In this document: positions 1,519 to 27,846 of the stretch, in pieces
Position numbering within the stretch: position 1 is the first letter of the stretch
Layout: each line of letters starts with the position of its first letter
From: an uncultured Alcaligenaceae bacterium
Lineage (GTDB): Bacteria; Planctomycetota; Planctomycetia; Gemmatales; Gemmataceae
Assembly: GCA_964574975.1 (NCBI GenBank)
Contig: CAZNSL010000002.1
Coordinates: forward strand, 1-29,976
Direction: 5' to 3'
Length of the DNA: 29,976 bases
Position numbers and translations under genes: made by a program
Notes under the pieces: generated by a model
Told to the model about the DNA's origin: nothing
What the model saw: only the letters and a program-made list of their open reading frames with translations
The model's database searches: none

Positions 1519-1521
1519 GTC

Positions 1522-1547
1522 GGGCGGCCAGTCGAAACCGGCCGCCC
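1522..1547. terminator. GC-rich hairpin between convergent pyrG and the cytochrome operon (possible bidirectional terminator)
   Basis: GGGCGGCC-A-GT-CGAA-AC-C-GGCCGCCC: an 8-bp stem plus 2 bp with one mismatch, in the 45-bp gap between two stop codons. There is no U-tract on either side. Confidence 0.55.
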
Positions 1548-1563
1548 GCATGGAAACGCGCAG

Positions 1564-2322
1564 TTACGGCTTGAACTCGATCTTGTGTTCGGTCGTGCCG
1601 TCGATCTTAATCTTCTGGCCCTTGGCTCCGGCGGCTCCGCCGTTGAACCCGTCTTCGTGCCAGACGACGAGCATGTACTCGCCCTTGGGAGCGTGCTTGA
1701 TCTCGAACTTCCCATCGGCATCGGTCACTGCGTAATACGGGTGGTCGAACACTCGCGCCCAACCCTTCATCCACTGGTGGATGTTGCAGGACAACGCGAT
1801 CTGCTGCTTGTCGGCCTTCAGCTTGATATCGTACTTGTTGCCTGGGGCAATGATCGTATTGCCGCCCGGGTTCTTCGCACGACTGCCGATGTAGCTGACG
1901 TTATGCGCGACTGGCGCACTGTTCTTGACGACCAGGATCTGCCCCTCCCGCACCGCGACGACTCGCGGTTCGAACGCGCACATCGGCTGGTCGATTTCGA
2001 CGGACGGCTTGTCCGGTTTGGCCAAACTTGCCGGCACCGGGGGTTTCGTGCCATCGACCTTCGTTAGCCAGACGATGACGTTCTTCAAACCCTTGTTGCC
2101 CTTGTTAATGTCGTAGATGTGAGCGAGCAAAGGACCTTTGGCGAGACAGTGTCCTTGGTCCTTGTCAACTTTCAGTGTGACGGGTGTTTTCGGCTCGCCG
2201 GCCCAAACCACCTGCCCTTTCAGCGACACGCCTTCGTCGGCCGCTCGGGCCGCCGGGCCGTCCGAAAACACTGCTGCAACGGCGAGTGTGCCGAGCATCA
2301 TTGCGATGGAGTGCTTACGCAT
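1564..2322 (-). CDS. Secreted cupredoxin-like (MauL/amicyanin-like) protein with a C-terminal carboxypeptidase-regulatory/prealbumin-like beta-sandwich
   Basis: N-terminal signal peptide (MRKHSIAMMLGTLAVAAVF...ARA), HNV followed by CNIHQWM, and C-terminal YAVTDADGKFEIKHAPKGEYMLVVWHE. It starts 4 bp after the octahaem stop. Confidence 0.75.
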   Translation of the reverse strand: MRKHSIAMMLGTLAVAAVFSDGPAARAADEGVSLKGQVVWAGEPKTPVTLKVDKDQGHCLAKGPLLAHIYDINKGNKGLKNVIVWLTKVDGTKPPVPASLAKPDKPSVEIDQPMCAFEPRVVAVREGQILVVKNSAPVAHNVSYIGSRAKNPGGNTIIAPGNKYDIKLKADKQQIALSCNIHQWMKGWARVFDHPYYAVTDADGKFEIKHAPKGEYMLVVWHEDGFNGGAAGAKGQKIKIDGTTEHKIEFKP

Positions 2323-2326
2323 CGGG

Positions 2327-5300
2327 TCACTTTCCTCCGGTAGCCCCCGCAGCCGCGGTGCGGGCCTTCAAGATCGGCCAGTCCGCTACGTCGGGGTAGA
2401 ACATCAAGAAATCGCGGCAGGCTTGAATCTGCTCCTTCGAGAAACCCTTCACCGAGGCGTGGAACTGTGGGTAGGGATTCTTCTCCGCATTCGCGGGGAA
2501 GTTGATCGGCATGACGGTCTTGAACGTCAAAAACCGCTGCGGGTTGGCGATCCAGCGTTCGGTCCAATCGGGCCGTAGTCGCTCGGCGGCGAGGCCCAAT
2601 TTCGGCCCCTGTTCCTGCTCCACAGGCATTGTACCTACCTGGTGGCACTTGACGCAGAGATTCGCGTCGGAAACCAACCGATAAGCGTCGAGGACGTACG
2701 CTTCCTTCTCTTCCCACTGCTTCTTGGCGGCAGCCACGAAGTTCGACTCGCCACCCTCCTTGATCTTGGCGAGGGCGACTTCTGCCGCCTTGAGCGAGTC
2801 CGCGATTGCAGCGTCCTCTTTCATGTCCTTCTTGGCCTGTTCGACGCGTGCCTGGGCCGCTTTCACGCGGGCCTCGGCCTGGGCGAGTTCCTCGCGGAAT
2901 TGCGACTGCCAGAACGGTTCCAACTCCTTGACCCTCGCGTCGAATACCTTATCGGCCTTGAGGCGTGCGACGTACTCGCGCGTCCGAGCTAACCGGTATC
3001 CTTCGTCGCGCTGGGCGACCTTCGGGTACGGTGCGGTCAGGCCGATACCAGGGTTCTCTCGTTTGTCCACCGCAGCGAAGTAGTCGACCAACGATTGAGT
3101 GTCCTCGTCGCTCAGGTTAAACTTGGGCATCCGAAGGACCGTGAGAGGTCGGATCGCGTGAGGTTGCTGGAGGAAACGGAAGAGCCACCCCGGCTGCGTT
3201 TTCTCGCCCTCGCGGACCAGGCTCGGCGGTGAAGCCGACTGGGCATAGCCACCGTTCGGATCGTAATAGGTCTTGTCGCGTTCCTGTAGGTACTTGGTCA
3301 ATAGGTTTGCGAAAACACCTCCTTGGGCCGGGCTATGGGCCGTCATCGCGGCCTCTGGTAGTTGGACGAAGGTGTACGCAGGCAAATCCCGTACCTCACC
3401 CTTCGCATTCGCGAAGCGCAGAGCGTGCGTCAGATTGCCGGAGATGAAGTTCTGACCTTCGAAACCCTCGGCGTCCTTGACGATTTCGATGGCGCTGAGT
3501 TTCGCCGTCACTGTACCTTTGCCGTCGATCTTTCCGCCCCACACGTTGTGTTCGGAGTAGCGGTGGTCGAGACCGTACTGGTCGGCACTCTCCTTGTAGT
3601 CGGTATACTTCTTCTCGAGCCACTCGGGTGCCTTGAAGAAAGTGACCTCGTCCGGCTTGCCGTCTTCCTTCTTGACGAACTTGAGGTCGGTCGTCGAGAA
3701 CTGGAATGTCTCCGATTGCAAGGTATGACATCCGGCACAGTTAAACTTTTCGAGAACCTTGCGTCCCTTGATCTCAGCGAGTTTGTCGCCCGACGGCCGG
3801 TTTACGAACTTGGCCGGCACCGGTTCGGCGACCAGTCCGAGGACGAACGTCATCACGGCCTCGCGGGCCTCGGCCTCCGCATTGCTGGCCCGTAGCGAAA
3901 ACGCCTCGTCCGACTCGCCCTCATTTCGTTGGATGCGGGCAAACTTGAACTGCGGCATCCTCGTTCGCTCAGTCCAATCCTTGATCCGGTTGTAGTCGAA
4001 GCTCCGTGGCTCCTGCAACTTCAGGTGCAGGAAGCCTTCGCGAGTCGCGTGGCCGTGGTGGACCTTTTCGTAGAAGAATCGCTCGTATGGCTGTTTGTCG
4101 CCCTTCATCGACCACGAAGTCATTTGTCGTTCGGCAGGCCTGCCTTCGTTGGACTTCTTTTCGGCGTCGGTCAAATTGCGCCGCACATCGACGATATTGA
4201 AGTGTTCCTCGATGAAGTGTTCGGCATCCTCGAACGCGAGACGATCGGGGTCTTTCTTGCCCCAATCGTTCAGGGCAACGCCGATCGGCTTCGGGTTCTC
4301 GAAACCTGGGACGTTATGGCAGGCGTAACATCCGAGGTTAGCAATCGCCTTCTTACCGACGAACATCTTGAGCTTATCGTCGTCGAGTCGGCCAGCGAGC
4401 AGGTGTTCGTCGGCGTCGATGGCCTTGGCCGCCAATTCCGCCTCCGAGAAGCCTTCTTCGCCTTCGATAATTCGTTCGAGTTCGCGGGCCGTCAGGTTCT
4501 TGAGGTAGACGCGGGCAAGGGCCTTCAGCGCGGTTCGGTCGGGCGTTTCGACCGTTGGCCCTTTCCAGTCGGACTTTTGCGAGATGAGCCACAGTGCGAT
4601 CTTATCCGCATCGTCTTCGCTCAATTGTACCGACGGCATGAGCGTCCGCGGGCTGTGGTTGTTGGGGTTGAGGAGCCACGACACCAGCCAAGCGCGGGCC
4701 GTCTCCGGCTTGCCGGCTTCGGTGCCGAGTTTGGCGGCCAGTCGGCTCAGATTCGGACCGTGGTTCGACTCGCTCACCATGGCCGGAATCGGCTTGTCGG
4801 CAAAGGTGCCTGCCTTGGCTGCTGCGTCGTGCTTGTGACAGGCCATGCACCCGCGCGTGTTGAACAGAAAATGGCCCTCGTCGACGACTGTGCCTTCCGC
4901 CTTACGGTCCGGAAGCTTCAGAGCATCCGCAGCCGGCAGAGCCTGAGCCCGCGCGGCGATTCGAGATTTGACTGCCACTAGTTCGCGTACGGCGTCCTTG
5001 CGATCCTTCTCCAATGTCTCGTTGCTAGCGATCCTGGCCGACAACTCGGTGACTTTGGCGTCATCCGCCTCCCGGGTCGCAGCGTCATCGTTCGCGTGCT
5101 TTTTGGCCTCGCCAAGTAACTCGCGGCTCTTGGTGAAGAGATAGTGGGCGATGGCCGTGATCTCGGTATCGGGGAAGCGCTTCTGCGCGTCGGGCAATGC
5201 TTCCGGAGAATTCGTCACCTGGAGGTAGTAGTGCGGCATCCTGGTATCCGGGCGGAACTCGCGTGGAGACTTGATCCAAGCTCTGGCCCATGCTTCGTTA

Positions 5301-6898
5301 GTTTTCTCCGCGATGCGCAGGAGACTCGGTCCGACTTTGCGTTGCGTGCCCGGCGGGTTGGCCGGATCGGCTAGTCGCTTCAACCGTTCTTCGGGGGTGA
5401 GTGCCTCGAGCGGCGGTTCTGGTTCGAGGCGAAGATCGGGGCCGATTTCACGTCCGGATTTCAGGCCGCTGATCTCATGGCAGCCGAAGCAGCCGAGTTC
5501 GCGCACGAGGTTGTAGCCTTTGACGAGTACCGGTGCTTCCACCTGGCTACCGCGGGTGAGGTCCTCGACCTGGTGGTGGCACTTCAGGCAGGTCGATTCG
5601 GCGAATCGCCTGGGCTGCATCCGGTAGTCCCAGAAGTGAATCGACTGCCAGTTGTGAAGTTTCTTCCACTCCCGTTCGGTCAGGACATCGTTGGGCGTGT
5701 GAGATGCATCGACGAAGGTCGTGGCGCTACCCTGGCCATCGTGGCACGAAGTACAGCCAAACTTCTCGGCCGAGTGGGGGCTGTTCGAATCGACGAAGAG
5801 GTCCAAACGGGGATGAGCGGTGAACTGCGCTATGCGCGAGTCAGTCAGCTTCACGGCTTCTGGGGCATATTGGCCATACGAGCCGTAACTGCCGTTTTCG
5901 ATCTGCCGTGTCAGGTCGGCGATCTCTTTTTCGTTGAGTCGTTCCTGTCCGCGATTGGCGCGGTCGCGATCGGTCAGCGCGATGATCGCGTCGGTCAACT
6001 TGCCTTTGAGGTACGGGTCGCTGAGCGGATCGTCGTTGAGGCGACGGACTGCGTCGGCCGTGTACGAGGACTTCTCCATTCCCAGATGGCAGGTGGTGCA
6101 ACGGTCGTAGCGGGTAACGTACTTGAAGCTGTAGTCGATCGGCAGTTCTTCGAGCGTGTACTGCTGAATGCGCGTCGGCGAGGCGAAACCGTCGATAATC
6201 GGCAGTGACCGGAACCAGTCGCCGAACCCCCACTCTTTTTGATTGGCCAGTTTGGCAAAGCGGTCGAAGTCTTCGGTCAGTAGCTTGAGGTGCGCCTCGG
6301 CGGCGTTAAGTTTCGCCTCAGCATCGGCCGGGCTGATCGACACGGCGTCGTATTTATCGGGCTTGACATCGTACGGTTTCAGGCGGGCCTCGTCGATTTC
6401 GAAAGCGAGCGATTCGATCTGCTTTTTCTTCTCGTCGAGTTCCTTGCGAATTACGTCTAACTCGGACAGATATCGCTTTGCAGTTGGTGTCTCGGGGCTG
6501 CGGTGTTCGACTTCGATGTTGTAGAAGCTCATCAACGAATCGTAGTCGGCCTTACGATTGGCCAACTGCGTTTCCTCTTTCGCCTTCTGCGTGACCCGTG
6601 CCCGTACGGACTCGTTGGCCGCGCCTTTCGCAGCGGCGAGGGTCGCCTTGGCCTTCGCAACCTCGGCCTCGGCTTCGAACACTTTGGCGCGGGCATCGGC
6701 ACTGGGGGCTGCCGCGAGCATGGTGCGTTTCGATAGCTCTTCCTCGACGGTTCGAAATACCTTCTGTTCTTTCTTGAAGGGCCGGTTGTAGTCCTCCCAG
6801 AACATCCAAAACGTGGTAACGAGCATGAAGACGCTCGACGCGGCAAAGACCACGTGGAGTACCTTCGTCTGGCGGTATGTCTGGTCGCTCGCGGCCAT
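2327..6898 (-). CDS. Giant membrane-anchored octahaem cytochrome c (1523 aa)
   Basis: Eight CxxCH motifs: CTTCH 6086-6100, CTSCH 5741-5755, CLKCH 5576-5590, CFGCH 5477-5491, CMACH 4835-4849, CYACH 4316-4330, CAGCH 3725-3739, CVKCH 2642-2656. One N-terminal hydrophobic helix (VLHVVFAASSVFMLVTTFWMFW). Confidence 0.93.
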   Translation of the reverse strand: MAASDQTYRQTKVLHVVFAASSVFMLVTTFWMFWEDYNRPFKKEQKVFRTVEEELSKRTMLAAAPSADARAKVFEAEAEVAKAKATLAAAKGAANESVRARVTQKAKEETQLANRKADYDSLMSFYNIEVEHRSPETPTAKRYLSELDVIRKELDEKKKQIESLAFEIDEARLKPYDVKPDKYDAVSISPADAEAKLNAAEAHLKLLTEDFDRFAKLANQKEWGFGDWFRSLPIIDGFASPTRIQQYTLEELPIDYSFKYVTRYDRCTTCHLGMEKSSYTADAVRRLNDDPLSDPYLKGKLTDAIIALTDRDRANRGQERLNEKEIADLTRQIENGSYGSYGQYAPEAVKLTDSRIAQFTAHPRLDLFVDSNSPHSAEKFGCTSCHDGQGSATTFVDASHTPNDVLTEREWKKLHNWQSIHFWDYRMQPRRFAESTCLKCHHQVEDLTRGSQVEAPVLVKGYNLVRELGCFGCHEISGLKSGREIGPDLRLEPEPPLEALTPEERLKRLADPANPPGTQRKVGPSLLRIAEKTNEAWARAWIKSPREFRPDTRMPHYYLQVTNSPEALPDAQKRFPDTEITAIAHYLFTKSRELLGEAKKHANDDAATREADDAKVTELSARIASNETLEKDRKDAVRELVAVKSRIAARAQALPAADALKLPDRKAEGTVVDEGHFLFNTRGCMACHKHDAAAKAGTFADKPIPAMVSESNHGPNLSRLAAKLGTEAGKPETARAWLVSWLLNPNNHSPRTLMPSVQLSEDDADKIALWLISQKSDWKGPTVETPDRTALKALARVYLKNLTARELERIIEGEEGFSEAELAAKAIDADEHLLAGRLDDDKLKMFVGKKAIANLGCYACHNVPGFENPKPIGVALNDWGKKDPDRLAFEDAEHFIEEHFNIVDVRRNLTDAEKKSNEGRPAERQMTSWSMKGDKQPYERFFYEKVHHGHATREGFLHLKLQEPRSFDYNRIKDWTERTRMPQFKFARIQRNEGESDEAFSLRASNAEAEAREAVMTFVLGLVAEPVPAKFVNRPSGDKLAEIKGRKVLEKFNCAGCHTLQSETFQFSTTDLKFVKKEDGKPDEVTFFKAPEWLEKKYTDYKESADQYGLDHRYSEHNVWGGKIDGKGTVTAKLSAIEIVKDAEGFEGQNFISGNLTHALRFANAKGEVRDLPAYTFVQLPEAAMTAHSPAQGGVFANLLTKYLQERDKTYYDPNGGYAQSASPPSLVREGEKTQPGWLFRFLQQPHAIRPLTVLRMPKFNLSDEDTQSLVDYFAAVDKRENPGIGLTAPYPKVAQRDEGYRLARTREYVARLKADKVFDARVKELEPFWQSQFREELAQAEARVKAAQARVEQAKKDMKEDAAIADSLKAAEVALAKIKEGGESNFVAAAKKQWEEKEAYVLDAYRLVSDANLCVKCHQVGTMPVEQEQGPKLGLAAERLRPDWTERWIANPQRFLTFKTVMPINFPANAEKNPYPQFHASVKGFSKEQIQACRDFLMFYPDVADWPILKARTAAAGATGGK

Positions 6899-6955
6899 GA
6901 GAGCAAATCTCCACTCACCTCGCCGAGTCAGTTCAGGCGGGTCTGGGACGGTCCG

Positions 6956-8233
6956 TCAAAGGTTCGTGAAGTACTCGGGGATGTAGATGATGTACTTCAG
7001 GTTGATGGTCCAGCGCAGGACCATTTTGATAGGCAGGAGTGCCATGAACAACAGGTGGATGATCATGACGTAGTAGCGCAGGAATCCCATCTTCGCAGCC
7101 ATCGCGCGCATCACCGTGACCGCCAGGAGCGGTGGGACGACCGTGAAGTACGCGATGGTGAGCAAGATTCCTGGTAACTCGCGGATGAACCAGTGGAAAC
7201 TACGCGGTTGTCGGCCGAATAAGTTCAACCAGAACAGTTCCGACAGGTTGACGTTGTTGAGGGGTACGACCTTGTGCGGGTCCCAGTTCTCGAAAAATCC
7301 GAAGAAGTTCCAGTTCGGCCCGCGGAGGAACGTGCCGAGGACGATCAACACGACCCAGAGCACGAGGAAGCCGAACTCCCAAACCAGGATCGAGAACGGA
7401 CGCTCTCGGAAGGTGTAGTAACCGTTGCCTTTCTGGTTGTAGTCGATGTACGGCATCGCAATCAGGCCGGTGATGATCATCGTCGGTAGCACGACGCCGG
7501 CCATCCACGGATCGAAGTAGACGAGCATCTCCTGCAGGCCGAGGAAGTACCACGGGGCCTTCGATGGGTTGGGGGCTTTGGCGCTCGTCGCCGGTTGCTC
7601 CAATGGGGCTTTGAGTACGACCGACCAGACGATCAATACGGCTGTCGCAATCACCATGGCGATAAGTTCGGTATAGACGAGGTCCGGCCAGACGAGCACC
7701 TTCTCGTCGTCCTTCTCGAGCGGTGGCTTGCCCTGGGCAATCAGGTCGTCGTTGAGGACCATGCGACGGACGCCGAACCATGTGAAAAATCCGACGACGG
7801 CAAGCAGCATCACGATTGGGACGTTGTCCTCTTTCGCGATGATCGATCGGAAGTCGGAATTGGTCAACGACCAGCCGAATGCAAGGAGCGTCAAGTTCGT
7901 GAACGCAAACGCAACCGTCGGTGCCGTCAGCGTCTTGCGAAACGCAAACAGTAGTGCGAACGCGATGCAGGAACCAACGAAGTAAGTAACCGCGTTGGTC
8001 ACAGCATCGATGGCGTGCGTCACGCGCTCCGGGATGATCAGGTGTGAGCCTATGGGCAGGAAGTAGAGGACGGCGTGGGCAACGAATGCTCCACCAACGG
8101 CCGTCCACAAGAGCGCGAGCGGACGGTCGCGGTGCTTGACGTAGTACCACGCAACGCCGAAATTCAGTAGGGCGCAGAGGATGTAGAAGACGCCCAGCCC
8201 GTTTTGCACGCCTCGGGTCAGTTCCGTGTGCAT
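6956..8233 (-). CDS. Cytochrome b C-terminal / b6f subunit IV-like protein with extra membrane helices (425 aa)
   Basis: VWPDLVY...APLEQPAT...PNPSKAPWYFLGLQEML is the subunit IV core with a Qo-motif equivalent. About 10 hydrophobic segments. Start moved to the ATG at 8233 (MHTEL), which removes an overlap with the upstream cytochrome b. Confidence 0.88.
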   Translation of the reverse strand: MHTELTRGVQNGLGVFYILCALLNFGVAWYYVKHRDRPLALLWTAVGGAFVAHAVLYFLPIGSHLIIPERVTHAIDAVTNAVTYFVGSCIAFALLFAFRKTLTAPTVAFAFTNLTLLAFGWSLTNSDFRSIIAKEDNVPIVMLLAVVGFFTWFGVRRMVLNDDLIAQGKPPLEKDDEKVLVWPDLVYTELIAMVIATAVLIVWSVVLKAPLEQPATSAKAPNPSKAPWYFLGLQEMLVYFDPWMAGVVLPTMIITGLIAMPYIDYNQKGNGYYTFRERPFSILVWEFGFLVLWVVLIVLGTFLRGPNWNFFGFFENWDPHKVVPLNNVNLSELFWLNLFGRQPRSFHWFIRELPGILLTIAYFTVVPPLLAVTVMRAMAAKMGFLRYYVMIIHLLFMALLPIKMVLRWTINLKYIIYIPEYFTNL

Positions 8234-8279
8234 GGATTTCGGCCCTTCCGATCGGCCCGCCCGTGGCGGGAGAGTTTGC

Positions 8280-9053
8280 CTAGAGTGCGCCGCTGATCCC
8301 ACCGTCCTTGCGGACGCGCCAGAAGTGGACTGCGATTAATACGGCCACCACCAGCGGGAGTGCGACGCAGTGCAGTACGTAGAACCGTAGGAGAGTATCG
8401 CCCGAGACGAACCGCCCGCCGAGTAACAGGAACCGCGCGTCGGACCCAGAGTGTATTAGCGGCACGCCGTTGACTTGTAACAGGGCCGCCCCCGGTCCTT
8501 CGTGCCCGAGTCCAGGAGTCGCGCGGGCCATGTTACTACCAACGGTAATGGCCCAGATCGCGAGTTGGTCCCACGGCAACAGGTAGCCGGTGAAGCTCAA
8601 CAGCAACGTGAGTACGAGTAAGAGGACACCGACGGACCAGTTAAATTCGCGCGGCGGTTTATATGAGCCCGTCAAGAACACGCGGTACATGTGCAGCCAG
8701 ATGGCGATGACCATGGCGTGCGCCCCCCAGCGATGTTGCTCGCGGAGGATGCCGAGCGTGGTCACGTCGCGCAATGCGAGGATGTCGTTATAGGCGTGTT
8801 CGAGTGTCGGCCGGTAGTAGAACATTAAGAGGACGCCGGTGACAGTCTCCACCAGGAACAGGAAGAACGTCAGACCGCCCATGCACCAGGTGTACGAGAG
8901 CGCGATGCCACTGCGCCGCACCGAGACCGGATGCAGGTGCAGAAACACATTGGTGAGCATGACCACCACACGGTTGCGCCGATCGCGCGGCGCGGGGTGG
9001 CGGAAGACGCTCTTCCAGACCTGCGTGTTGCGGATGTATTCACCGACGGACAT
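8280..9053 (-). CDS. petB: Cytochrome b6-type (short, N-terminal) cytochrome b
   Basis: Four haem-b His in [15 protein letters not shown] and [11 protein letters not shown]...VHF. It also has TWCMGG (haem c_i Cys position), [14 protein letters not shown] and the C-terminal GISGAL typical of cytochrome b6. Confidence 0.93.
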
Positions 9054-9115
9054 TGCGGCCTCGATTTCAGCGTCCTGATTTCAGGTCTCGAATTCTGCTC
9101 GCACTTCCAACGGGC

Positions 9116-9724
9116 CTAAATCTTAACGAACGAGTCGGGGTTGTCCCACTGGTTCAACTCTTCCTGGAACTTACGGCTCTTGTCCACGACGAGTTGCCCG
9201 TCGTCGCCTACGCTGATCGCCCAACGCTCCAGTGGTCGGGGAGCCGGGCCTTCGAAGTTGATGCCCGTGATGTAGAAGCCGCTACCGTGGCACGGGCACT
9301 TGAATTTCTGGTCGGCTTCCAGCCAGTTCGGCGTGCAACCGAGATGGGTGCAGGTCGTGCTCAGGGCGAAGATTTTGCCCTGGTAGCGGACGATCCAGAA
9401 ATTCTTGTCCTTGAACGTGTCGACGACTTTGCCTTCCTCGAAGTTCTTCGGATCGCCGACCTTGACGCGGTTCGGCGGTTCCGACAGCACGTTCGGAATC
9501 ATGAACCGGAGCGTGCCAAGCGTCATCAGGCCCATGGCTGCCCAAAAGGTCGCCCAGGCAACGGTCCAGGCACTGGTCACCCAGCGGACGAGGAAGAATC
9601 GACGGTCTTCGACTTTGGCCGGCGGCTTCGCTGGGGCGGGTTTGGCCGGCATCGGCGGTTTGGCGACAACCGGGGCTGCGGGCGGTGTTGGCATCGGGGC
9701 GGGCAGGGGAGCTGCATCGGACAT
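9116..9724 (-). CDS. Rieske [2Fe-2S] protein of a Rieske/cytochrome b complex (202 aa)
   Basis: CTHLGC and CPCHGS boxes, GPAPRPL, and the twin-arginine-like DRRFFL before a TM helix. Start moved to the ATG at 9724 (MSDAAP). Confidence 0.93.
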   Translation of the reverse strand: MSDAAPLPAPMPTPPAAPVVAKPPMPAKPAPAKPPAKVEDRRFFLVRWVTSAWTVAWATFWAAMGLMTLGTLRFMIPNVLSEPPNRVKVGDPKNFEEGKVVDTFKDKNFWIVRYQGKIFALSTTCTHLGCTPNWLEADQKFKCPCHGSGFYITGINFEGPAPRPLERWAISVGDDGQLVVDKSRKFQEELNQWDNPDSFVKI

Positions 9725-9811
9725 GCGACCAAACCTCGCAGTCGGGCCACGCGGACCCGTCGGTACTCCGTCGAAACGGCCGAAAGTACGGAGAAAAGTA
9801 TCTGTCAAAAC

Positions 9812-9827
9812 GGCAAAGGCAATGCCA
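9812..9827 (-). promoter_or_regulatory. Candidate sigma54 (-24/-12) promoter for the Rieske/cytb operon
   Basis: The minus strand reads TGGCATTGCCTTTGCC, with GG and GC spaced exactly as in the TGGCACG-N4-TTGCW consensus. It lies 87 bp upstream of the Rieske ATG in a 224-bp intergenic region. Confidence 0.5.
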
Positions 9828-9948
9828 ATGTGGCGCGTTTCGCCATTCCATGCACGGGTCACAGTGGAAGGACACGACTACGAAAATCCTTGCATGCAAC
9901 GAATACGACAACGCTTCCCGTCAACGGCAACAGGACTGACGGAGATTG

Positions 9949-10956: not shown

Positions 10957-11750
10957 CAGTACTTCTCTTGCAGGATCGCTAGGCACTCGTCGTGCAAGAG
11001 TCCGTTGGAGGTCAGTACATCGGGCTTATGGATGGTCGGGACACCGGACCAGTCGGTGAACCGCCCGCCGGCCTCCTCGACGATGACCTTGATCGCGGCG
11101 ATGTCCCACGGATGGACGCCGTGTTCTGCCATGAGTTCGCCCGAACCCTGGGCGACCAGCAGGTGGCCGTAATAGTCGCCGAAACCGCGCTGCCGTTGGG
11201 TGCGCTTGGCGAGTTCGATGAAGCAATCCTGCTTGCCGGCTGCGATGAACCAGTCGATGTTCGAGTAAAACATCATTGCGTCGTCGAGTTTGTCCACGGT
11301 CGAGACGCGGATACGCTTGTCGCCGCGGTATGCCCCGTCTCCGCGCAGGGCGCGAAACAGGTGGCCGACGACCGGCTCGTAGGCAATGCCAGCGATTGGC
11401 TCACCCTTGTATTCCAGCCCGATCAGAGTCGCCCACAGCGGGATGCCGCGGACGAAGTTGCGCGTCCCGTCGACTGGATCGACGATCCAGCGGTAGCCGG
11501 AATCCCCGTCGGTCATACCGAACTCTTCGCCGTAGAACCCATCGCCGGGGAACGCATCGAGCAGCAACTTGCGAAGGCACGTCTCGGCATCGCGGTCGGC
11601 GACCGTGACTGGGCTATTGTCGCTTTTCCAGACGACCTGCGATGCGAAGTCGGCCGAGTCGATATCGGGGAAGTAGTTCAGGGCGATGCGTCCCGCCTCT
11701 TGGGCCGCGCGGGCCATGAAGTCGTAGCGGGAGGTCCAGTCCGGGTTCAT
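10956..11750 (-). CDS. hisN: Histidinol-phosphatase, inositol monophosphatase family
   Basis: KSDNSPVTVAD, GEEFG, WIVDPVDGTRNF and WDIAA motifs. The HisN-like subfamily is judged from overall pattern; other IMPase-family substrates are possible. Confidence 0.8.
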   Translation of the reverse strand: MNPDWTSRYDFMARAAQEAGRIALNYFPDIDSADFASQVVWKSDNSPVTVADRDAETCLRKLLLDAFPGDGFYGEEFGMTDGDSGYRWIVDPVDGTRNFVRGIPLWATLIGLEYKGEPIAGIAYEPVVGHLFRALRGDGAYRGDKRIRVSTVDKLDDAMMFYSNIDWFIAAGKQDCFIELAKRTQRQRGFGDYYGHLLVAQGSGELMAEHGVHPWDIAAIKVIVEEAGGRFTDWSGVPTIHKPDVLTSNGLLHDECLAILQEKY

Positions 11751-11795
11751 AGAGTATCCACCGGGCGGGCGAATCAGGTTGGGGTGATTGTAGCG

Positions 11796-12869
11796 ATGCG
11801 GTTCGCGATTCTAGGGGACCACCCCGACGGTAGGGCCGTGGCCGCTGCATTGCCGGCCGCCGGTCATGAGCTGCGGGCTTACCAGGGATCGCTACCGGAC
11901 GACTGGCCGGGCGTCAAAACGACCGCCGACCTGGAGGAGATTCTGGCCGATCCCGCCATCGAGGCCGTCATCGTTGCCGGTGGCCCCGGCGAGCGACTTA
12001 ACCAGCTTCGGCGAGTATTGCAGTCGGAACGCTCGGCACTTGTTGTCCATCCCGTGGATGACAAGCCGGACGGCGGGCACGAAATCGCCATGCTTCTGGG
12101 CGACGTGCATCAGGTCGCGATCCCGATCCTGCCTGGGTCGGTGAGCGAGGCCGTTGCGACATTCGCAAAAACCAGCGAAAATGCAGCGTGGGTCTCGTTG
12201 GAGGTGGAGTCACCTGACGAACAGGTCTGGGAGACAGGTGGCCGGCCGAGCTTGCCCGGTTGGACCGAGTTGCGCCGGGCCGGTGGCGATATCGTCGAGT
12301 TGGCCGCATTCGCGCTGGCTGAGGAGATATTACCCGGCGACGTGGTTATGGTGCACGGACGGTTCGCCGACGGGCGACTGTTTCGCGCGCTGTACGCACC
12401 GCGGCGCTCGAATCGAACATCCATTTTGAGCGCGCCCGGTGCCCCGCAAACCGCAATCGACGAGACTGCCAAGCCCTGGAAGTTGCTCGTGCGCCGCTTT
12501 GAGGAGGCCGTTACGCGTCTTCGGGCCACACCGCGGGCCGCGCCCGGGGCCGGCTCGCCAGTCGATCTCCGCGATGGCCTGAGCTGGCTCGATGAGATAC
12601 GAGCGCTGGAACTCGATGATGCGGTTCGCCAGAGCGTCAAGCGGCGCCGGGCCGTCGCGCTCGATTTTCAAGAAGCGAACGAGGAAGTTGGTTTCAAAGG
12701 GACGATGACCCTCGTCGGCTGCGCCCTCGTTTGGCTACTACCGGTCATGCTGCTCGTCGCCGCGTGGTTGCCAGGGCTGTTCTGGATTCTCGTTGCGTCG
12801 GTGTTCGGCTTTCTGGTCCTGCAAGTATTCCGCTGGATCGTGCCGGCGGGCCACCGGCAAGCGAAATGA
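11796..12869 (+). CDS. Hypothetical protein with a degenerate Gfo/Idh/MocA-like N-terminal domain and two C-terminal TM helices (357 aa)
   Basis: Start at the ATG at 11796 (MRFAILGDHPDG). LEEILADPAIEAVIVA resembles the Gfo/Idh/MocA fold. The C-terminus is hydrophobic (VGCALVWLLPVMLLVAAWLPGLFWILVASVFGFLVL). The upstream part of the 625-aa track ORF is antisense to hisN. Confidence 0.65.
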   Translation: MRFAILGDHPDGRAVAAALPAAGHELRAYQGSLPDDWPGVKTTADLEEILADPAIEAVIVAGGPGERLNQLRRVLQSERSALVVHPVDDKPDGGHEIAMLLGDVHQVAIPILPGSVSEAVATFAKTSENAAWVSLEVESPDEQVWETGGRPSLPGWTELRRAGGDIVELAAFALAEEILPGDVVMVHGRFADGRLFRALYAPRRSNRTSILSAPGAPQTAIDETAKPWKLLVRRFEEAVTRLRATPRAAPGAGSPVDLRDGLSWLDEIRALELDDAVRQSVKRRRAVALDFQEANEEVGFKGTMTLVGCALVWLLPVMLLVAAWLPGLFWILVASVFGFLVLQVFRWIVPAGHRQAK

Positions 12870-15479: not shown

Positions 15480-18230
15480 CTAACGGTTCGATTGCAGGTA
15501 CGCGAACAAATCGCGCAACTCAGCGTTCGAGAAGGCGTCGAGCAGCTTTTCCGGCATGAGCGAATGGCGGGACGGTTCCAGCGATTCGAGCTTCGCCCGC
15601 GGCACCGTGGCCCGCTCTCCCTTCGAGTCGACGATCGTAACGACCTGTGGCGACTGCTCGGCAAGTAACCCCTGTAGCAAACGCCCATCGCGGGTCAGGG
15701 CATCGTAGGAGACGAACTCGGGCCGGACGATGGCGCTCGGATCGACGATCTGCGTCAGCAACCAGTCGCGGTTGCGGCGGTCGATCGTCGTCAGATCGGG
15801 ACCGACTTTGCCTCCGTCTCCGTGCAGCGTGTGGCAGTTGGCGCAGTGCTGCTTGAACAGTGCTATGCCGCGGGTCACGTCGCCAGTCCCTTCCCGGAGC
15901 CGGGCCGACAGGTGGCGAACGTGAGCCAGTTTCTCGCCGCTCGACTCCGGCGCGACGCGGCCCCAATGTTTGGCGATCAGCGTGTCGAGCGCATCGTGTC
16001 GATAGCCTGCGACGCGCCGAAGCACGTCCAGTGGCACGTCCTTGGCGGCGAGGCGGCCGGCGTCCACCGCGGCGAGTAACGTCTCTGCCGATTCCGGGCG
16101 AGAGGCGAGGACCGAGACCGCTTTGGCCCGCAACGACGAAGGGAGTTTTGGCACAAGGCTCGCGACGGTCTCGGCCGCGGCGCGATCGGGGACGCCGCCA
16201 ACGACCGACAGGGCCGCGGAGCGCACGGCGTCGGTCGCGCCGCCGCGGAGGACGTCGAGTGCGACCGGCAGAGCATCGGACGGGTTGATTTCGCCGAGTA
16301 ATTCGAGCAAGGCCGCCTGATCTGGCGAACGTACATCGGCGGCTGCCGTGCGAAGCTGTCGAAATGCTGCCCCGTCGCCGAGTCGCACTGCGATGCGAAG
16401 GGCCAGCATCGACGGGAGTTCGTCCTGAAGCGTGCCGAATGGCTTCGCAAGGGGCGGCGGAACATGGCTCAAGCGGCGGCCGTCGAGCGCCCGTTCCATG
16501 CCTCGGGCAAGCAGTTCGCGCTCGGCACGACCGGGGGCCAGTTCGAGTAGCCGCGCCGTCGTGGCAAAATCGTCCTCGGCGACGTAACGCCGGCCGAGAC
16601 GTTCCAAGAGCATTGTGCGGGAGATGGGCGAACGCCACATGTCGGGTTGTGCGATTAGTTCAGCGACGAGGTCTTTGCCGCGAACGGCGTGAGCCTCGAC
16701 GGCCCACCACGTCAGGAGCGGGATCATCGGGTCGCGCTCGTCGTCGGCGTGCGCGAGCAAGCCGCGGACGATTGCCAAGCCATCGAGTGCAGGCAGCCGT
16801 CGTGCGGTGCAGGCGAGTTGGTTCCGCACTATCGCGCTCGGTTCGGAACGCGCCAGTTCGGCGAGGTGCGCCGCTTGTCGCGGCGTCACATTCACCCCGT
16901 CGCCGAGCAGGCGAACAGCCCACGCTCGGACGAATTCGTCGGTGTGCGTCAGGCCGACATCGGGCGAATCGCCGTCGCGAACGCGCCGCCAGAACTCTAC
17001 GAGTGCGGTGGCGTATCGCGGTGTGACGGGGCCATGCGGTGCCTTGGGTGCGATGCGGTATATTCGGCCGGTCGTCTTGTCCCAGTTGTCCACCGGGTCG
17101 ACGTGGTTGGCCCGCTCGTCGTACCAGTCGGCAACGTACACAGCGCCATCCGAACCGACCGTCAGGTCCACGGGGCGGAAGTGCCGGTCGTCGGTGGTCA
17201 GAAGTTCGCCAGCCTGCCGCGACGAAAACGACGAACCGTGCGGCGTCAGGTCGTACCAGTAGACCGCGTTGGACAGGAGGTTGCAGGTGAGGTATCGCCC
17301 CTCAAAGTGCTTCGGAAACGTGCCGCCGCGGTAGACGATGCCGCCACAGGAGACGTGACCGCCCTTGAAGTTGGGGCAGGGGATGTGATCGAAGAAACCA
17401 TAAGTGTGCGGGTTGTGCAACGCCCCGTGCTTGCCCCAGTTTTTGACGTAGTAACCGCCCTGAACTACGTGCATGCACGCGACGCCGCCGAAATTCGTCC
17501 CGGCAATGAGACGGGCGTTACGGTCGAAGTCGAGGCCCCAGATGTTGCCGCCACCCTCGGCAAACAACTCGAAACGGTCGGTCGGCGGGTGGTAGCGCCA
17601 GACGCCCTGTTGAAACTCGATGCCGCGGACGTTGGCAGTGACCGTACTGCCCTGCGCGCCGTAGAGCCAGCCGTCCGGCCCCCACTGGAGTGAGTTCGCG
17701 TAGGCATGGGAGTCCTCCGTGCCGAACCCACTGAGTACGACTTTCGGGTCGCCATCCGGTACGTCGTCGCCGTCGCGGTCTTCGTAGAACAACAAATAGG
17801 GTGGTTGGGCGACGTACACGCCACCGCCACCGACACAGAACCCCGTCGCTAGATTCAACCCGGTCACGAAGTCCTTGGATTTCCGAAACCGGCCGGTATC
17901 GTCGCGGTCGTAGAGGATGGTAAGCTTGTCGGCACCCTTCGGCCCCTTCGGGGGCGGTTCTGGTACCCGGTCGTACTTGGTTCGCAGGAATTGATCGACG
18001 GCGACTGGCGTCAGTCCAGCCGGGTTCGGGTATTGGAGGTATTGCAATACCCACAGTCGCCCGCGGTCGTCGAACGAGATTGAAACCGGCTGCCGGACGA
18101 GCGGCTCCGCGGCGGCGATCCGCACCTCGAAGCCATCGGGGACGCGGAAATGCTTGAGCGCCTTGACCGGCGGAAGGCCGGCTGCGCGAGCGACGCCCGT
18201 CGCCATTAGCACCAATAACGCGATGCGCAT
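15480..18230 (-). CDS. PVC-type haem-binding putative membrane-bound dehydrogenase (beta-propeller + HEAT-like region + C-terminal CxxCH domain)
   Basis: Signal peptide, then the FRVPDGFEV...AAEP...FDDRGRLWV and WGPDGWLY propeller repeats, and FRPVD. The C-terminus has CANCH (15831-15845), VGPDL, DPSAIV and SLMPE, typical of the Pirellula/Verrucomicrobium haem-binding family. Confidence 0.88.
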   Translation of the reverse strand: MRIALLVLMATGVARAAGLPPVKALKHFRVPDGFEVRIAAAEPLVRQPVSISFDDRGRLWVLQYLQYPNPAGLTPVAVDQFLRTKYDRVPEPPPKGPKGADKLTILYDRDDTGRFRKSKDFVTGLNLATGFCVGGGGVYVAQPPYLLFYEDRDGDDVPDGDPKVVLSGFGTEDSHAYANSLQWGPDGWLYGAQGSTVTANVRGIEFQQGVWRYHPPTDRFELFAEGGGNIWGLDFDRNARLIAGTNFGGVACMHVVQGGYYVKNWGKHGALHNPHTYGFFDHIPCPNFKGGHVSCGGIVYRGGTFPKHFEGRYLTCNLLSNAVYWYDLTPHGSSFSSRQAGELLTTDDRHFRPVDLTVGSDGAVYVADWYDERANHVDPVDNWDKTTGRIYRIAPKAPHGPVTPRYATALVEFWRRVRDGDSPDVGLTHTDEFVRAWAVRLLGDGVNVTPRQAAHLAELARSEPSAIVRNQLACTARRLPALDGLAIVRGLLAHADDERDPMIPLLTWWAVEAHAVRGKDLVAELIAQPDMWRSPISRTMLLERLGRRYVAEDDFATTARLLELAPGRAERELLARGMERALDGRRLSHVPPPLAKPFGTLQDELPSMLALRIAVRLGDGAAFRQLRTAAADVRSPDQAALLELLGEINPSDALPVALDVLRGGATDAVRSAALSVVGGVPDRAAAETVASLVPKLPSSLRAKAVSVLASRPESAETLLAAVDAGRLAAKDVPLDVLRRVAGYRHDALDTLIAKHWGRVAPESSGEKLAHVRHLSARLREGTGDVTRGIALFKQHCANCHTLHGDGGKVGPDLTTIDRRNRDWLLTQIVDPSAIVRPEFVSYDALTRDGRLLQGLLAEQSPQVVTIVDSKGERATVPRAKLESLEPSRHSLMPEKLLDAFSNAELRDLFAYLQSNR

Positions 18231-18278
18231 CGTGCCCCTCACTCGCCGCGCATTGGTCGTTCGACGCTATCACTCGGA

Positions 18279-27375: not shown

Positions 27376-27846
27376 GTGCGACCACTTCATCTTGCCGCGG
27401 TTACCGTCTTGACTCTGGTCGGACCAGTGTGGCCACAGGTTCCAACGCCACCACTGGCGACACGCGAGATTGTCGCTGCCCTAATCGACACGCTCCGCGA
27501 CCCCGATGTAGAGGTCCGCACCTATTCTGCCGTTGCACTTGCAGCAGTGGGAACCGAAGCCGTCGATCCCCTCATCGTCACGTTGGCCGACAAGAACCCG
27601 TCGGCTCGTGCCTATGCCGCTTATTCCCTCGGCGTCATGGGTAGCCCCGCAGCCCCCAGCATCGGCCCGCTCGTGAAGACCCTCAAGGACGAATCGACTG
27701 ACGTGCGGCGGCAAGCCGCACAAGCGCTGAGCCGAATTCTGTCGGCTCAGAAAGTATCAACGGGTACCCTGCTTTCTCCGGCACCGCGGCCGTCCGAGAT
27801 GCCGCCGTCACCGATGTTTCCAGCCCCGGCAGGTACGGGCCGGTGA
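27376..27846 (+). CDS. Secreted HEAT-repeat protein (156 aa)
   Basis: GTG start with a GGGGGA RBS and a signal-like N-terminus. Three HEAT/PBS-type repeats (LRDPDVEVRTYSAVALAAVG, LADKNPSARAYAAYSLG, LKDESTDVRRQAAQAL) and a Pro-rich tail. Confidence 0.8.
   Translation: MRPLHLAAVTVLTLVGPVWPQVPTPPLATREIVAALIDTLRDPDVEVRTYSAVALAAVGTEAVDPLIVTLADKNPSARAYAAYSLGVMGSPAAPSIGPLVKTLKDESTDVRRQAAQALSRILSAQKVSTGTLLSPAPRPSEMPPSPMFPAPAGTGR

Follow-up and report, generated by a model that had tools for sequence, protein, structure and literature searches.

A Rieske/cytochrome b operon with an octahaem cytochrome c and a blue-copper protein in a Gemmataceae planctomycete, and its probable link to an A-type oxidase

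Where would electrons go after leaving a Rieske/cytochrome b complex in which, as proposed here, an octahaem cytochrome c takes the place held by cytochrome f or c1 in the b6f and bc1 complexes? This question is raised by a window of 29,976 nucleotides, the whole stretch of DNA analysed, from an activated-sludge planctomycete of the Gemmataceae. Five co-directional ORFs encode a Rieske protein, a b6-type cytochrome b, a subunit IV, an octahaem cytochrome c and a cupredoxin. All five were found on the minus strand where an earlier note on this DNA had placed them. Successive genes are separated by 62, 46, 57 and 4 bp, the octahaem gene starting 57 bp past that of subunit IV and the cupredoxin gene 4 bp past that of the octahaem protein. 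Pfam matches run across the operon (PF00355, PF00033, PF00032, Cytochrom_C and PF00127). From upstream to downstream, the features are:

9725..9948, minus strand: intergenic region of 224 bp upstream of the Rieske gene, past the mtnA stop (sequence read); presumed promoter/5'-UTR region
9116..9724, minus strand: Rieske [2Fe-2S] subunit, 202 aa, ATG at 9724 (Pfam PF00355 at 2.7e-11)
8280..9053, minus strand: b6-type cytochrome b (split, four-helix), 257 aa (PF00033 at 2.9e-39)
6956..8233, minus strand: enlarged subunit IV, 425 aa from ATG (PF00032 at 1.9e-4)
2327..6898, minus strand: membrane-anchored octahaem cytochrome c, 1523 aa (motif and TM scan)
1564..2322, minus strand: secreted two-domain blue-copper (type-1 cupredoxin) protein, 252 aa (PF00127)
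1521..1548, minus strand: G+C-rich 12-bp hairpin (RNA fold, z -3.14, 0/200 shuffles as stable)

The hairpin that the earlier note had seen behind the operon is indeed present. Its 12-bp G+C-rich stem (~1521-1548, dG -30.9 kcal/mol) lies where the cupredoxin gene and pyrG converge, between their stop codons at 1564 and 1518. The absence of a T-run explains why a simple terminator scan made no call there, and the hairpin is likely a bidirectional terminator-like element. The promoter in front of the operon stays a candidate: a sigma-70 consensus scan of 9725-9948 was empty, but planctomycete promoters may not fit this consensus. Four of the five genes (cupredoxin, octahaem, subunit IV and cytochrome b) are covered by contigs of RNA libraries made from the same sludge sample; none of these contigs validly bridges a gene junction, and none lies on the flanking pyrG or mtnA.

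The nearest solved structure to the cytochrome b is the b6 subunit of a b6f complex (1q90_B, 7.8e-41). The ligands of the b haems (H107/H121/H228/H243), the haem-ci motif W-C57-M-G-G and the HLHP motif with H39 and H41 are the same in 85/85 homologues, anammox-like sequences included. The NCBIfam model ExtP scored 259 bits and did not reach its cut-off of 290. In the assembly, which is 78% complete, the single Cytochrome_B locus found is that of the operon. Subunit IV has about 10 predicted helices. Its ATG start is backed by the orthologue alignment A2; an alternative GTG at 8302 would give 448 aa. A PetD-like canonical core (~180-305), which matches subunit IV of b6f (1q90_D, 3.8e-4) and carries the Qo motif A226-P-W-Y229, is preceded by a helical bundle varying by lineage (~7-166) and followed by a conserved extension (~330-425); homologues of other phyla can be aligned only from residue ~69-125 onward. 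There are 128 or more invariant columns in alignment A2, K-A-P-W-Y among them. The match to NCBIfam ExtQ (1.6e-15) is below cut-off, and the AF2 model has a pLDDT of 65 overall and of 77-96 in the N-terminal bundle. The cytochrome b core is a member of the published 'APWY clade' with its WCMGG haem-ci motif. As for the Rieske protein, an N-terminus rich in Pro, Ala and Lys leads to a twin-arginine motif (R41-R42-F-F-L), then to a membrane anchor and to the cluster motifs CTHLGC...CPCHGSGF. The best PDB match, over residues 87-202, is 9rk3 (E 5.8e-40), the Kuenenia Rieske protein Kustd1480, for which an Em of +335 mV has been measured (PMC12954380). Together with the homology, this value would fit a high-potential branch made of c haems and blue copper.

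The octahaem cytochrome has one N-terminal TM helix (12-35) followed by a long helical region. It contains exactly eight CxxCH motifs, at residues 267, 382, 437, 470, 684, 857, 1054 and 1415, and the motif scan found neither CxxCK nor any other open-site motif. The first three belong to a trihaem module with conserved H362, H375 and H400. The other five belong to class-I-like His/Met domains, where M554, M754, M981, M1257 and M1463 are the Met candidates, all within Met-Pro motifs except M1463. In a 74-sequence alignment, these three His and five Met stand as eight conserved candidate distal ligands, and planctomycete-specific insertions appear at ~276-350, 601-675, 901-950, 1076-1200 and 1301-1400. 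The eight CxxCH are kept across phyla in orthologues of 940-1750 aa. Database matches are partial (Cytochrom_C, Cytochrome_C7, FixO and SoxX in Pfam/NCBIfam), and the protein is homologous to the 970-aa octahaem of an anammox-like locus of the Kustd1480-1485 type (E 8.5e-49). With a conserved candidate for the sixth ligand at each of the eight haems, the data fit a function as a relay rather than as an enzyme, in line with the eight-haem relay of the earlier note.

The last gene encodes a protein with a Sec signal peptide, ending in ARA before ADEG. PF00127 matches it with 21.5 bits, barely above the cut-off of 21.2. The cupredoxin domain (~105-192) has H140, C179, H182 and M185 as ligands, with the C-x2-H-x2-M spacing of amicyanin, and C59 and C115 likely form a disulfide. 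In 40/40 homologues of 26-49% identity the type-1 Cu ligands and the two Cys are unchanged, and the ligand motif is found in 70/71 further homologues. Foldseek searches with the AF2 model (pLDDT 90, pTM 0.84) returned cupredoxins, amicyanin and plastocyanin as top PDB matches, with a probability of 1.00 and TM(target) of 0.65-0.74. The designation as blue-copper-like, made at first from the letters, is thus borne out by ligands and fold. The beta-strands flanking the domain have weak CarboxypepD_reg-like similarity.

The same gene order is observed in about 100 related Planctomycetota loci. The five genes recur in 20 relatives and in most of 80 further loci, far beyond chance. Practically all loci of sufficient length, from at least five phyla, have the order Rieske-b6-subunit IV-octahaem, whereas their flanking genes differ. 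A version with a shorter octahaem protein occurs in Thermoanaerobaculia, Omnitrophota and Latescibacterota. The cupredoxin gene lies directly 3' of the octahaem gene in 36 of 38 assessable Planctomycetota loci, and also in Thermoanaerobaculia (4/4), Omnitrophota (1/1) and Latescibacterota (1/1); among the loci examined, an operon has from one to three cupredoxin paralogues in tandem. Both genes are thus conserved beside those for Rieske/cytochrome b, and the lack of conservation that would have refuted the earlier note is not what is seen. In Vicinamibacterales and Bacteriovoracaceae, the complex is present with an adjacent cupredoxin gene in 0/11 cases, so the core does not require the copper protein.

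No terminal oxidase or reductase lies in the window, as had been remarked, its other genes being all housekeeping or unrelated. The electron sink had for this reason been left blank; gene linkage and co-occurrence now allow it to be named. In Pirellulales and Schlesneria, the operon continues directly into genes for a dihaem cytochrome c, COX2 and COX1, and in one locus (L062) dihaem c and COX2 follow it. COX1 comes next, in the same orientation, in each of the genomes tested (5/5). The linked enzyme is an A-type haem-copper oxidase whose COX2 contains CuA but lacks a fused cytochrome c. In the genome studied here, the orthologous oxidase is on another contig (C248), with dihaem-COX2-COX1 in the order of the linked loci; its COX1 is 58-62% identical to the linked ones, against 37-43% for the other COX1 genes of this genome. 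With an orthologue threshold of at least 60% identity, 20/27 relatives that carry the complex have this COX1, against 0/14 of those that lack it; for genomes at least 90% complete, the figures are 16/16 and 0/11. These relatives are not phylogenetically independent. We conclude with fair confidence that the sink would be this specific A-type oxidase with its dihaem cytochrome c.

What is known of Planctomycetes points to menaquinol as the membrane quinol. In the model that we favour, with a probability of about 0.7, a menaquinol-oxidising variant of complex III would feed a haem relay, blue copper and an A-type oxidase. The b6c-type complex would oxidise the membrane quinol by a Q-cycle. The low-potential electron would cross the membrane by way of haems bL, bH and the covalent haem ci and re-reduce quinone. 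The high-potential electron would go from the Tat-exported Rieske cluster to the membrane-anchored octahaem cytochrome, which would act as a pure relay with three bis-His haems and five His/Met class-I domains, and from there to the secreted type-1 copper protein. Copper protein and dihaem cytochrome c would then serve one particular A-type oxidase, encoded in the same gene string in Pirellulales and Planctomycetales and on another contig here. We infer that the products make up a single complex, and likewise which way the electrons flow, in what order the carriers follow the Rieske centre and which quinone is used. Bis-His haems usually have low potentials, and three of them fit awkwardly with downhill flow at high potential. 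The value near +300 mV deduced for the Rieske centre from homology is strangely high if menaquinol is oxidised (PMC12954380), so the energetics may be unconventional.

Other mechanisms may be envisaged. The octahaem protein could be a branching hub, or a long-range wire through the enlarged periplasm of planctomycetes, distributing electrons from quinol to several acceptors, periplasmic or outer, such as N-oxide reductases, metals and other oxidases; the aa3 oxidase would be just one outlet. Eight haems far exceed the need of a single hand-over, the presence of as many as three cupredoxin paralogues in an operon suggests more than one partner, and the family extends to phyla that do not as a rule respire O2. 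The long helical insertions of planctomycete forms are missing from the 940-1090-aa forms of other phyla, and the model of the Kuenenia homologue Kustd1485 shows long helices and haem groups set apart from one another, a layout whose purpose was called unclear (PMC12954380). Such a role is nevertheless unlikely, as the A-type oxidase is the only redox enzyme consistently linked in the genomes examined and no reductase or outer-membrane cytochrome gene was seen beside the operon in about 100 loci. Flow in the opposite direction is known from Acidithiobacillus ferrooxidans, whose PetI bc1 complex runs in reverse, fed by rusticyanin and cytochrome c. Here, a periplasmic donor would reduce the cupredoxin, then the octahaem protein and the menaquinone pool, uphill, at the expense of the proton-motive force. 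The entry through a blue-copper protein and c haems would be common to both cases, the family also occurs in lineages rich in anaerobes or lithotrophs (Omnitrophota, Latescibacterota, anammox relatives), and the Qo motif is APWY, that of a clade whose complexes Kao & Hunte argued may operate in reverse (PMC4122944). Their proposal is, however, based on one gene-cluster argument; no lithotrophic donor enzyme is linked to the operon in any locus examined, and the window and genome context is of heterotroph type (sugar kinase, G6PDH, housekeeping flanks). Fusion to and co-occurrence with a terminal oxidase module are as predicted by a forward chain from quinol to O2, and we hold reversal to be improbable.

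A copper-handling or assembly factor of the PCuAC/Sco type, metallating CuA or CuB of the oxidase while octahaem and dihaem alone carry electrons, would account for the co-occurrence of the cupredoxin with a CuA-containing enzyme, for the core complexes of Vicinamibacterales and Bacteriovoracaceae that lack its gene nearby, and for beta-sandwich parts absent from classical small blue-copper proteins. Cu(I) chaperone motifs are Met/His-rich, unlike the ligand set found here. The invariant His...Cys-x2-His-x2-Met is that of a classical type-1 electron-transfer site, the best structural matches are redox cupredoxins (pseudoazurin among them), and tandem paralogues suit alternative shuttles better than a chaperone; such a function is thus quite improbable. 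It is hardly credible, finally, that the octahaem and cupredoxin genes are mere neighbours from an unrelated pathway, the Rieske/b6/subunit IV core using another acceptor. The unbridged junctions in the RNA contigs would agree with it, but gene order is retained despite changing flanks, the two genes follow at 57 and 4 bp, the operon encodes no other c-type cytochrome as Rieske acceptor, and the homologous Kuenenia products have been treated as subunits of one complex, expressed and modelled whole (PMC12954380).

The architecture is less novel than the earlier note supposed. The APWY core (PMC4122944) and Rieske/b6/subunit IV/octahaem operons of Nitrospina, Kuenenia and M. oxyfera (PMC3578206) have been described, and the homologous Kuenenia complex Kustd1480-1485 has been the subject of proteomics, of crystallography on its Rieske protein and of modelling with AlphaFold3 (PMC12954380). 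This closest studied relative shares a homologous Rieske protein and octahaem cytochrome with the present operon, but it has an NAD(P) oxidoreductase and no cupredoxin. The complex is dispensable, being absent from several complete genomes within the family, and the genome studied here also has an ACIII-caa3 cluster. This form of complex III is nonetheless widespread.

Five co-directional genes on the minus strand make up the operon.

Genes of the operon, in operon order (coordinates in the window, strand, product and length, from the ORF listing and translation)
9724..9116, minus strand, Rieske protein, 202 aa
9053..8280, minus strand, cytochrome b6, 257 aa
8233..6956, minus strand, subunit IV-like protein, 425 aa
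6898..2327, minus strand, octahaem cytochrome c, 1523 aa
2322..1564, minus strand, cupredoxin-like protein, 252 aa

In this order, the genes are separated by 62, 46, 57 and 4 bp. ORF listing, translation and Pfam searches bear out the tight arrangement, with gaps of 4-62 bp, described in the earlier note. The Pfam matches are Rieske, Cytochrome_B, Cytochrom_B_C, Cytochrom_C and Copper-bind, the last barely above threshold. Housekeeping genes flank the operon, pyrG being convergent with it and mtnA lying upstream. The hairpin that had been noticed behind the operon was recovered by RNA folding: it is G+C-rich, 12 bp long, and located between the convergent stop codons (dG -30.9 kcal/mol, z -3.1). 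As to the candidate promoter that had been proposed in front, a scan for the sigma-70 consensus upstream of the Rieske gene gave no match. Further upstream, 5.7 kb from the operon, on the same strand and beyond intervening housekeeping genes, the window encodes a protein of 920 aa that combines DUF7133 and HEAT repeats with a cytochrome c domain at its C-terminus (15480-18242, minus strand). This protein is typical of planctomycetes and is a putative periplasmic dehydrogenase-like haem protein. For two long plus-strand ORFs, at 10992-12869 (625 aa) and 27843-29045 (400 aa), Pfam gives nothing at E <= 0.001.

DNA nearly identical to the window was found in activated-sludge and biofloc metagenomes. 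In two metatranscriptome runs, both made from the sludge sample that also gave the best DNA run, short RNA contigs map to the cupredoxin, octahaem, subunit IV and cytochrome b6 genes. No contigs were found for pyrG and mtnA in those two runs, and the Rieske gene had zero coverage by the contigs, which are 150-300 nt long. One RNA contig crosses the gap between subunit IV and cytochrome b, with just 18 nt on the cytochrome b side as against the 31-nt rule. These data suggest that the operon is expressed in sludge.

The first three genes encode a b6-type core. The Rieske protein (PF00355, 2.7e-11) carries a twin-arginine motif and the two cluster boxes, CTHLGC at 125-130 and CPCHGS at 143-148. 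Its soluble domain matches PDB 9rk3 (5.8e-40), with which it has the CPCHGSGF box in common; 9rk3 is Kuenenia Kustd1480, for which an Em of +335 mV was measured (PMC12954380). If this homology holds, the Rieske centre encoded here would lie near +300 mV. Four-helix cytochrome b (9053..8280) and subunit IV (8233..6956) are encoded by separate genes, which is the b6-type split. The b-haem ligands of cytochrome b6, H107/H121 and H228/H243, have the correct spacing of 14 and 15 residues and are invariant in 85/85 homologues. Equally invariant are C57, G59 and G60 of the haem-ci motif W-C57-M-G-G, where C57 would be the putative site of covalent attachment of haem ci/cN. An HLHP pair, H39/H41 (window 8931-8939), precedes this motif and is also invariant (85/85, anammox-like copies included). 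H112 is likewise invariant in the 85 homologues. AlphaFold3 models of the Kuenenia homologues place an unexpected extra b-haem at the dimer interface, with a His of this region as ligand (PMC12954380); one His of the HLHP pair probably corresponds to that ligand. In subunit IV, the Qo motif A226-P-W-Y229 is invariant in 19/19 sequences; APWY is one of six major Qo patterns (PMC4122944). About ten helices are predicted in this subunit. They are distributed over a core resembling PetD, a C-terminal extension that is conserved, and an N-terminal bundle that varies between lineages. The AF2 model of the core is weak (pLDDT 32-55 over residues 170-260) and too poor for a fold search, and the model was used just for helix counts and for the confident N-terminal bundle.

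The octahaem cytochrome c starts with an N-terminal transmembrane anchor followed by a long helical stretch. Three of its CxxCH motifs (267, 382 and 437) are accompanied by invariant non-motif histidines, H362, H375 and H400, which would make these three haems bis-His. The other five (470, 684, 857, 1054 and 1415) are each followed by an invariant or near-invariant methionine (M554, M754, M981, M1257 and M1463). All but one of these five methionines sit in Met-Pro, inside a repeated G-P-x-L...W...P...M-P pattern that is typical of cbb3-type class-I domains. Haem geometry being derived from the sequence alone, eight haem motifs are matched by eight conserved sixth-ligand candidates, and no CxxCK or other open-site motif is found in the protein. 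On these two grounds, the octahaem cytochrome is predicted to be a relay and not an enzyme, and an HAO-, ONR- or Otr-like activity is rejected. The HAO-like octahaem cytochrome of anammox loci is a separate protein of 594 aa.

The last gene product has a Sec signal peptide. Its type-1 ligands, H140 and C179-x2-H182-x2-M185, are invariant in 40/40 homologues, as is the cysteine pair C59/C115, and the ligand motif is present in 70/71 further homologues. The AF2 model has a pLDDT of 90, and Foldseek retrieves amicyanin, plastocyanin, pseudoazurin and Cupredoxin_1 with probability 1.00 and TM(target) of 0.65-0.74. Fold and ligand set thus point to a Greek-key type-1 cupredoxin, for which copper binding and electron transfer are predicted. 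The family comprises 3,468 representative clusters at E <= 1e-30, with generic annotation. It also contains giant multi-domain proteins of 1300-3200 aa, such as P0007 (3178 aa), P0029 and P0061, in which as many as seven stretches match; the cupredoxin module of two domains therefore serves as a building block elsewhere too.

The genome to which the window belongs is a 6.9-Mb MAG (78% complete, 1411 contigs), and among named relatives the best match to its cytochrome b6 comes from a Gemmataceae MAG (89% identity). The five-gene order is kept in 20 relatives from the same family, order and class, the cupredoxin gene being often doubled or tripled in tandem. More broadly, a scan of species-representative genomes with cytochrome b6 gave at least 597 matching stretches in several phyla. 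The best 80 named loci among them are mostly from Planctomycetota (Gemmataceae, Pirellulales, Planctomycetales, Isosphaerales, Phycisphaerae) and also include Acidobacteriota, Omnitrophota, Latescibacterota and Bacteriovoracaceae. In all loci where the sequence is long enough, the Rieske, b6 and subunit IV genes are followed by a cytochrome with eight CxxCH motifs, 1200-1750 aa long in Planctomycetota as against 940-1090 aa in other phyla; the extra length in Planctomycetota consists of five insertions. A cupredoxin gene lies directly 3' of the octahaem gene in 36 of the 38 assessable Planctomycetota loci, as well as in Thermoanaerobaculia (4/4), Omnitrophota (1/1) and Latescibacterota (1/1). 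The synteny search suggested in the earlier note thus shows that both genes are conserved beside the Rieske/cytochrome b pair, in 36/38 Planctomycetota loci and 6/6 loci of three other lineages. No cupredoxin gene was seen at this position in Vicinamibacterales or unclassified Acidobacteriota (0/10) nor in Bacteriovoracaceae (0/1). The Vicinamibacterales loci (L082-L096, L110) have Rieske, b6, subunit IV and an octahaem cytochrome of about 950 aa without a cupredoxin gene; in one of them, the gene after the octahaem cytochrome (L085:14786-15895) is an unrelated DUF429/Xre-antitoxin-like ORF.

Within the phylum, a close cytochrome b6 was detected in 104 of the 235 high-quality genomes sampled from Planctomycetota, and the complex is missing from several complete Gemmataceae genomes. 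The complex is widespread, though not universal. The former count is from the tally made with cytochrome b6. The phylum-wide octahaem tally at E <= 1e-40 was 11/251 and was set aside as uninformative, because it scored just two candidates per genome and its HSPs are fragmented. A search of genome contigs with octahaem seeds retrieved no related loci, since exact-peptide seeds are too strict for a protein whose orthologues share just 33-49% identity; the conserved cytochrome b6 served as query in its place. Some individual loci deserve a comment. In genome G020 (locus L022, G020:C2:1423000-1442000), the Rieske, b6 and octahaem genes each occupy at least two frames, the octahaem gene being in four pieces; in genome G005 (locus L027, G005:C18), the octahaem gene is split in two. 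These broken frames mean either that the operon has decayed into pseudogenes or that the assemblies contain indel errors. Besides, four loci on MAG contigs labelled 'Candidatus Kuenenia' (L060, L068, L071, L072) carry a Pirellulales-type operon, with b6 79-83% identical to that of the window; in L060 and L068, cupredoxins and a dihaem cytochrome c are present as well. Anammox-like b6 copies are only about 61-62% identical and their loci contain NAD(P) oxidoreductase inserts. The four labels look like mis-binning or mis-naming.

Where do the electrons go? The earlier note left the sink unknown, on the grounds that no terminal oxidase or reductase lies in the window. The remaining window genes indeed include neither, but linkage and co-occurrence now indicate an A-type oxidase. 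Locus L062, from Pirellulaceae, continues with cupredoxin, cupredoxin, dihaem cytochrome c and COX2. In 5/5 genomes tested, namely Schlesneria sp. T3-172 and four from Pirellulales, a COX1 gene follows immediately on that strand. In Pirellulales and Planctomycetales, the extension consists of a dihaem cytochrome c of 420-530 aa and a COX2 that has CuA but lacks a fused cytochrome c, then COX1 and additional oxidase genes, all on the operon's strand; such loci are L062 (18927-20768), L134 (G291:C2:5384500-5396000) and L135 from Schlesneria (G295:C1:2188000-2199000). In Gemmataceae, the oxidase module is unlinked. The window's own genome has it on contig C248, where dihaem c, COX2 (CuA, no fused cytochrome c) and COX1 follow one another in the same order as in the operon-linked module. 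The COX1 of C248 is 58-62% identical to the operon-linked COX1s, as against 37-43% for the other oxidases of the genome. Among about 40 relatives, which are not independent and in which absences nevertheless span eight genera in two families, a COX1 orthologue at >=60% identity is present in 20/27 genomes with the complex and in 0/14 without it. The seven complex-bearing genomes without the orthologue are 66-87% complete. When only genomes at least 90% complete are considered, the counts become 16/16 with the complex and 0/11 without. Fusion in some lineages and strict co-occurrence in others are strong comparative evidence that the complex and the linked oxidase form a functional unit.

The operon is the single cytochrome b locus found in the window's own assembly. 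Several haem-copper oxidases are encoded on other contigs, one of them beside an ACIII-type NrfD cluster. This ACIII-like cluster (contig C133:170-9754) comprises a 1046-aa ActB-like ORF, a 506-aa NrfD-family ORF and a monohaem ORF. It adjoins a caa3-type oxidase, with a COX2 carrying CuA and one CxxCH, followed by COX1. The same genome would therefore have two separate quinol-to-oxidase routes.

The closest studied system is Kuenenia Kustd1480-1485, the anammox 'R/b-2' complex (PMC12954380). Both have a four-helix cytochrome b of b6 type with a haem cN/ci site, a subunit IV-like protein that is enlarged, and a large octahaem cytochrome c, anchored in the membrane, where b6f has cytochrome f; the Kuenenia octahaem cytochrome has long helices and grouped haems (PMC12954380). 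The window cytochrome b shares about 61-62% identity with anammox-like copies and has the HLHP pair, WCMGG and the b-haem histidines in common with them. The 970-aa octahaem cytochrome of a Kustd-type locus, from a genome whose anammox-like status is inferred from gene content, is collinear with that of the window (E 8.5e-49), which is about 550 aa longer owing to insertions. The two systems differ in other respects. In Kuenenia, subunit IV has 5 helices as compared with about 10 here, and a Cys-rich NAD(P) oxidoreductase (FAD/FeS) is inserted in the operon, whereas the window operon contains none. This subunit, proposed to make NAD(P)H (PMC12954380), measures 570-598 aa with 21-23 Cys in anammox-like loci and was not seen between subunit genes in about 100 non-anammox loci. 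Conversely, a cupredoxin gene follows the octahaem gene in the window but not in the anammox-like locus.

Cytochromes b of this kind have been classified before. The APWY clade, defined by a split cytochrome b, an APWY Qo site and a WCMGG putative haem-ci motif, was reported from Planctomycetes and scattered phyla, with no member characterised at the time (Kao & Hunte 2014, PMC4122944). Short CxGG cytochromes b form Dibrova subfamily G (PMC5600118). The window carries both marks of the APWY clade, each invariant. These surveys classify cytochrome b and Rieske proteins and describe neither the octahaem and cupredoxin partners nor the oxidase linkage (PMC4122944, PMC5600118). A b6-like operon with an 'atypical octaheme' was noted by Lücker et al. 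in Nitrospina, Kuenenia and M. oxyfera (PMC3578206). From this study and the Kuenenia work, the four-part core was already known at the genomic level. This published work on the core reduces the novelty raised in the earlier note. In the openly accessible literature, several key subscription reviews being outside this scope, we found no description of a conserved operon-encoded blue-copper partner, no linkage of the complex to a particular oxidase, and no recognition of the form devoid of NAD(P) reductase as the widespread one. An earlier account of the cupredoxin link may exist in Dibrova 2013, ten Brink 2013 or Kartal 2013.

With b6f (PetB/PetD/PetC/PetA), the complex has in common the split b6 and subunit IV, the haem-ci site and the Rieske protein. 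The nearest solved cytochrome b is b6 of b6f (7.8e-41). The likeness extends to a soluble type-1 copper protein that would accept the electrons, and the best fold matches of the cupredoxin include plastocyanins. However, b6f has cytochrome f (PetA) and PEWY, whereas the window has no PetA-like gene, an octahaem cytochrome c and APWY. Subunit IV has 3 helices in b6f as against about 10 here, no small Pet subunits are evident in the window, and the copper protein has extra beta-sandwich parts. Moreover, the host does not photosynthesise, and its electrons probably end on an aa3-type oxidase.

A cupredoxin placed between a Rieske/cytochrome b complex or ACIII and an oxidase is known from sulfocyanin SoxE in the Sulfolobus SoxM supercomplex, from halocyanin in haloarchaea and from auracyanin with ACIII in Chloroflexus. 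In these chains, the copper protein is encoded with the quinol-oxidising module and carries electrons to a haem-copper oxidase. To our knowledge, no multihaem relay links the Rieske centre to the copper protein in these systems, and their cupredoxins are not known to be related to the present family; the likeness would be one of functional analogy only. Finally, the best NCBIfam matches of cytochrome b and subunit IV are Geobacter ExtP and ExtQ (NF040969/NF040970), grouped here with other deltaproteobacterial Cbc-type b6-like modules. They too are split b6-type modules working with multihaem c-type cytochromes. Naming the genes after this selenite/tellurite operon was rejected, since both scores are under the curated equivalog cut-offs (259.1 versus 290 for ExtP; 57.5 versus 150 for ExtQ); ExtQ is a family of 134 positions as compared with the 425-aa subunit IV of the window. 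A link of the operon to selenite or tellurite reduction is unsupported.

Considering the cofactor ligands, fold, synteny and co-occurrence observed, a mechanism may be envisaged. We infer that the gene products assemble as a single complex that oxidises menaquinol, MK-6 being the quinone of Planctomycetes; the direction of flow and the order of carriers are proposed on the same footing. Quinol would be oxidised at the APWY Qo site, one electron returning to quinone via bL, bH and ci. The other electron would be taken by the mobile Rieske head to the octahaem relay, and from there, via the secreted blue-copper protein and the dihaem cytochrome c, to CuA of the A-type oxidase. The idea that an octahaem relay ending on a copper protein replaces the usual single-haem acceptor is supported by conserved ligands, fold and synteny.

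It may further be imagined, although we consider it unlikely, that the present complex is the ancestral 'plain' form of a large Rieske/cytochrome b class with its own energetic design. This idea stems from a Rieske centre of about +300 mV working on low-potential menaquinol, the invariant HLHP pair, the eight-haem wire, the dedicated blue-copper partner and the hard-wiring to one aa3 oxidase, with which the complex might form a supercomplex across the wide planctomycetal periplasm. If true, the unusual energetics that have been suggested for the anammox complexes would characterise the entire family and would not depend on NAD(P) reduction; the family would then stand as a third major complex III architecture beside bc1 and b6f.

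Rieske/cytochrome b complexes count among the energy converters that are understood best. The sequence data argue for a widespread octahaem/blue-copper complex III with a specific, testable link to an aa3-type oxidase. The predicted chain leads from menaquinol to Rieske/b6, octahaem c, blue copper (with dihaem c) and one specific A-type oxidase. Carriers that can be cultured, for instance Schlesneria and Pirellulales isolates, bring purification, cryo-EM and genetics within reach. The complex also provides a natural control for the anammox debate, having the same core minus the NAD(P) reductase. Should the Rieske centre of this plain form, too, have a very high potential, the argument for 'bifurcation to NAD(P)H' would have to be reconsidered.
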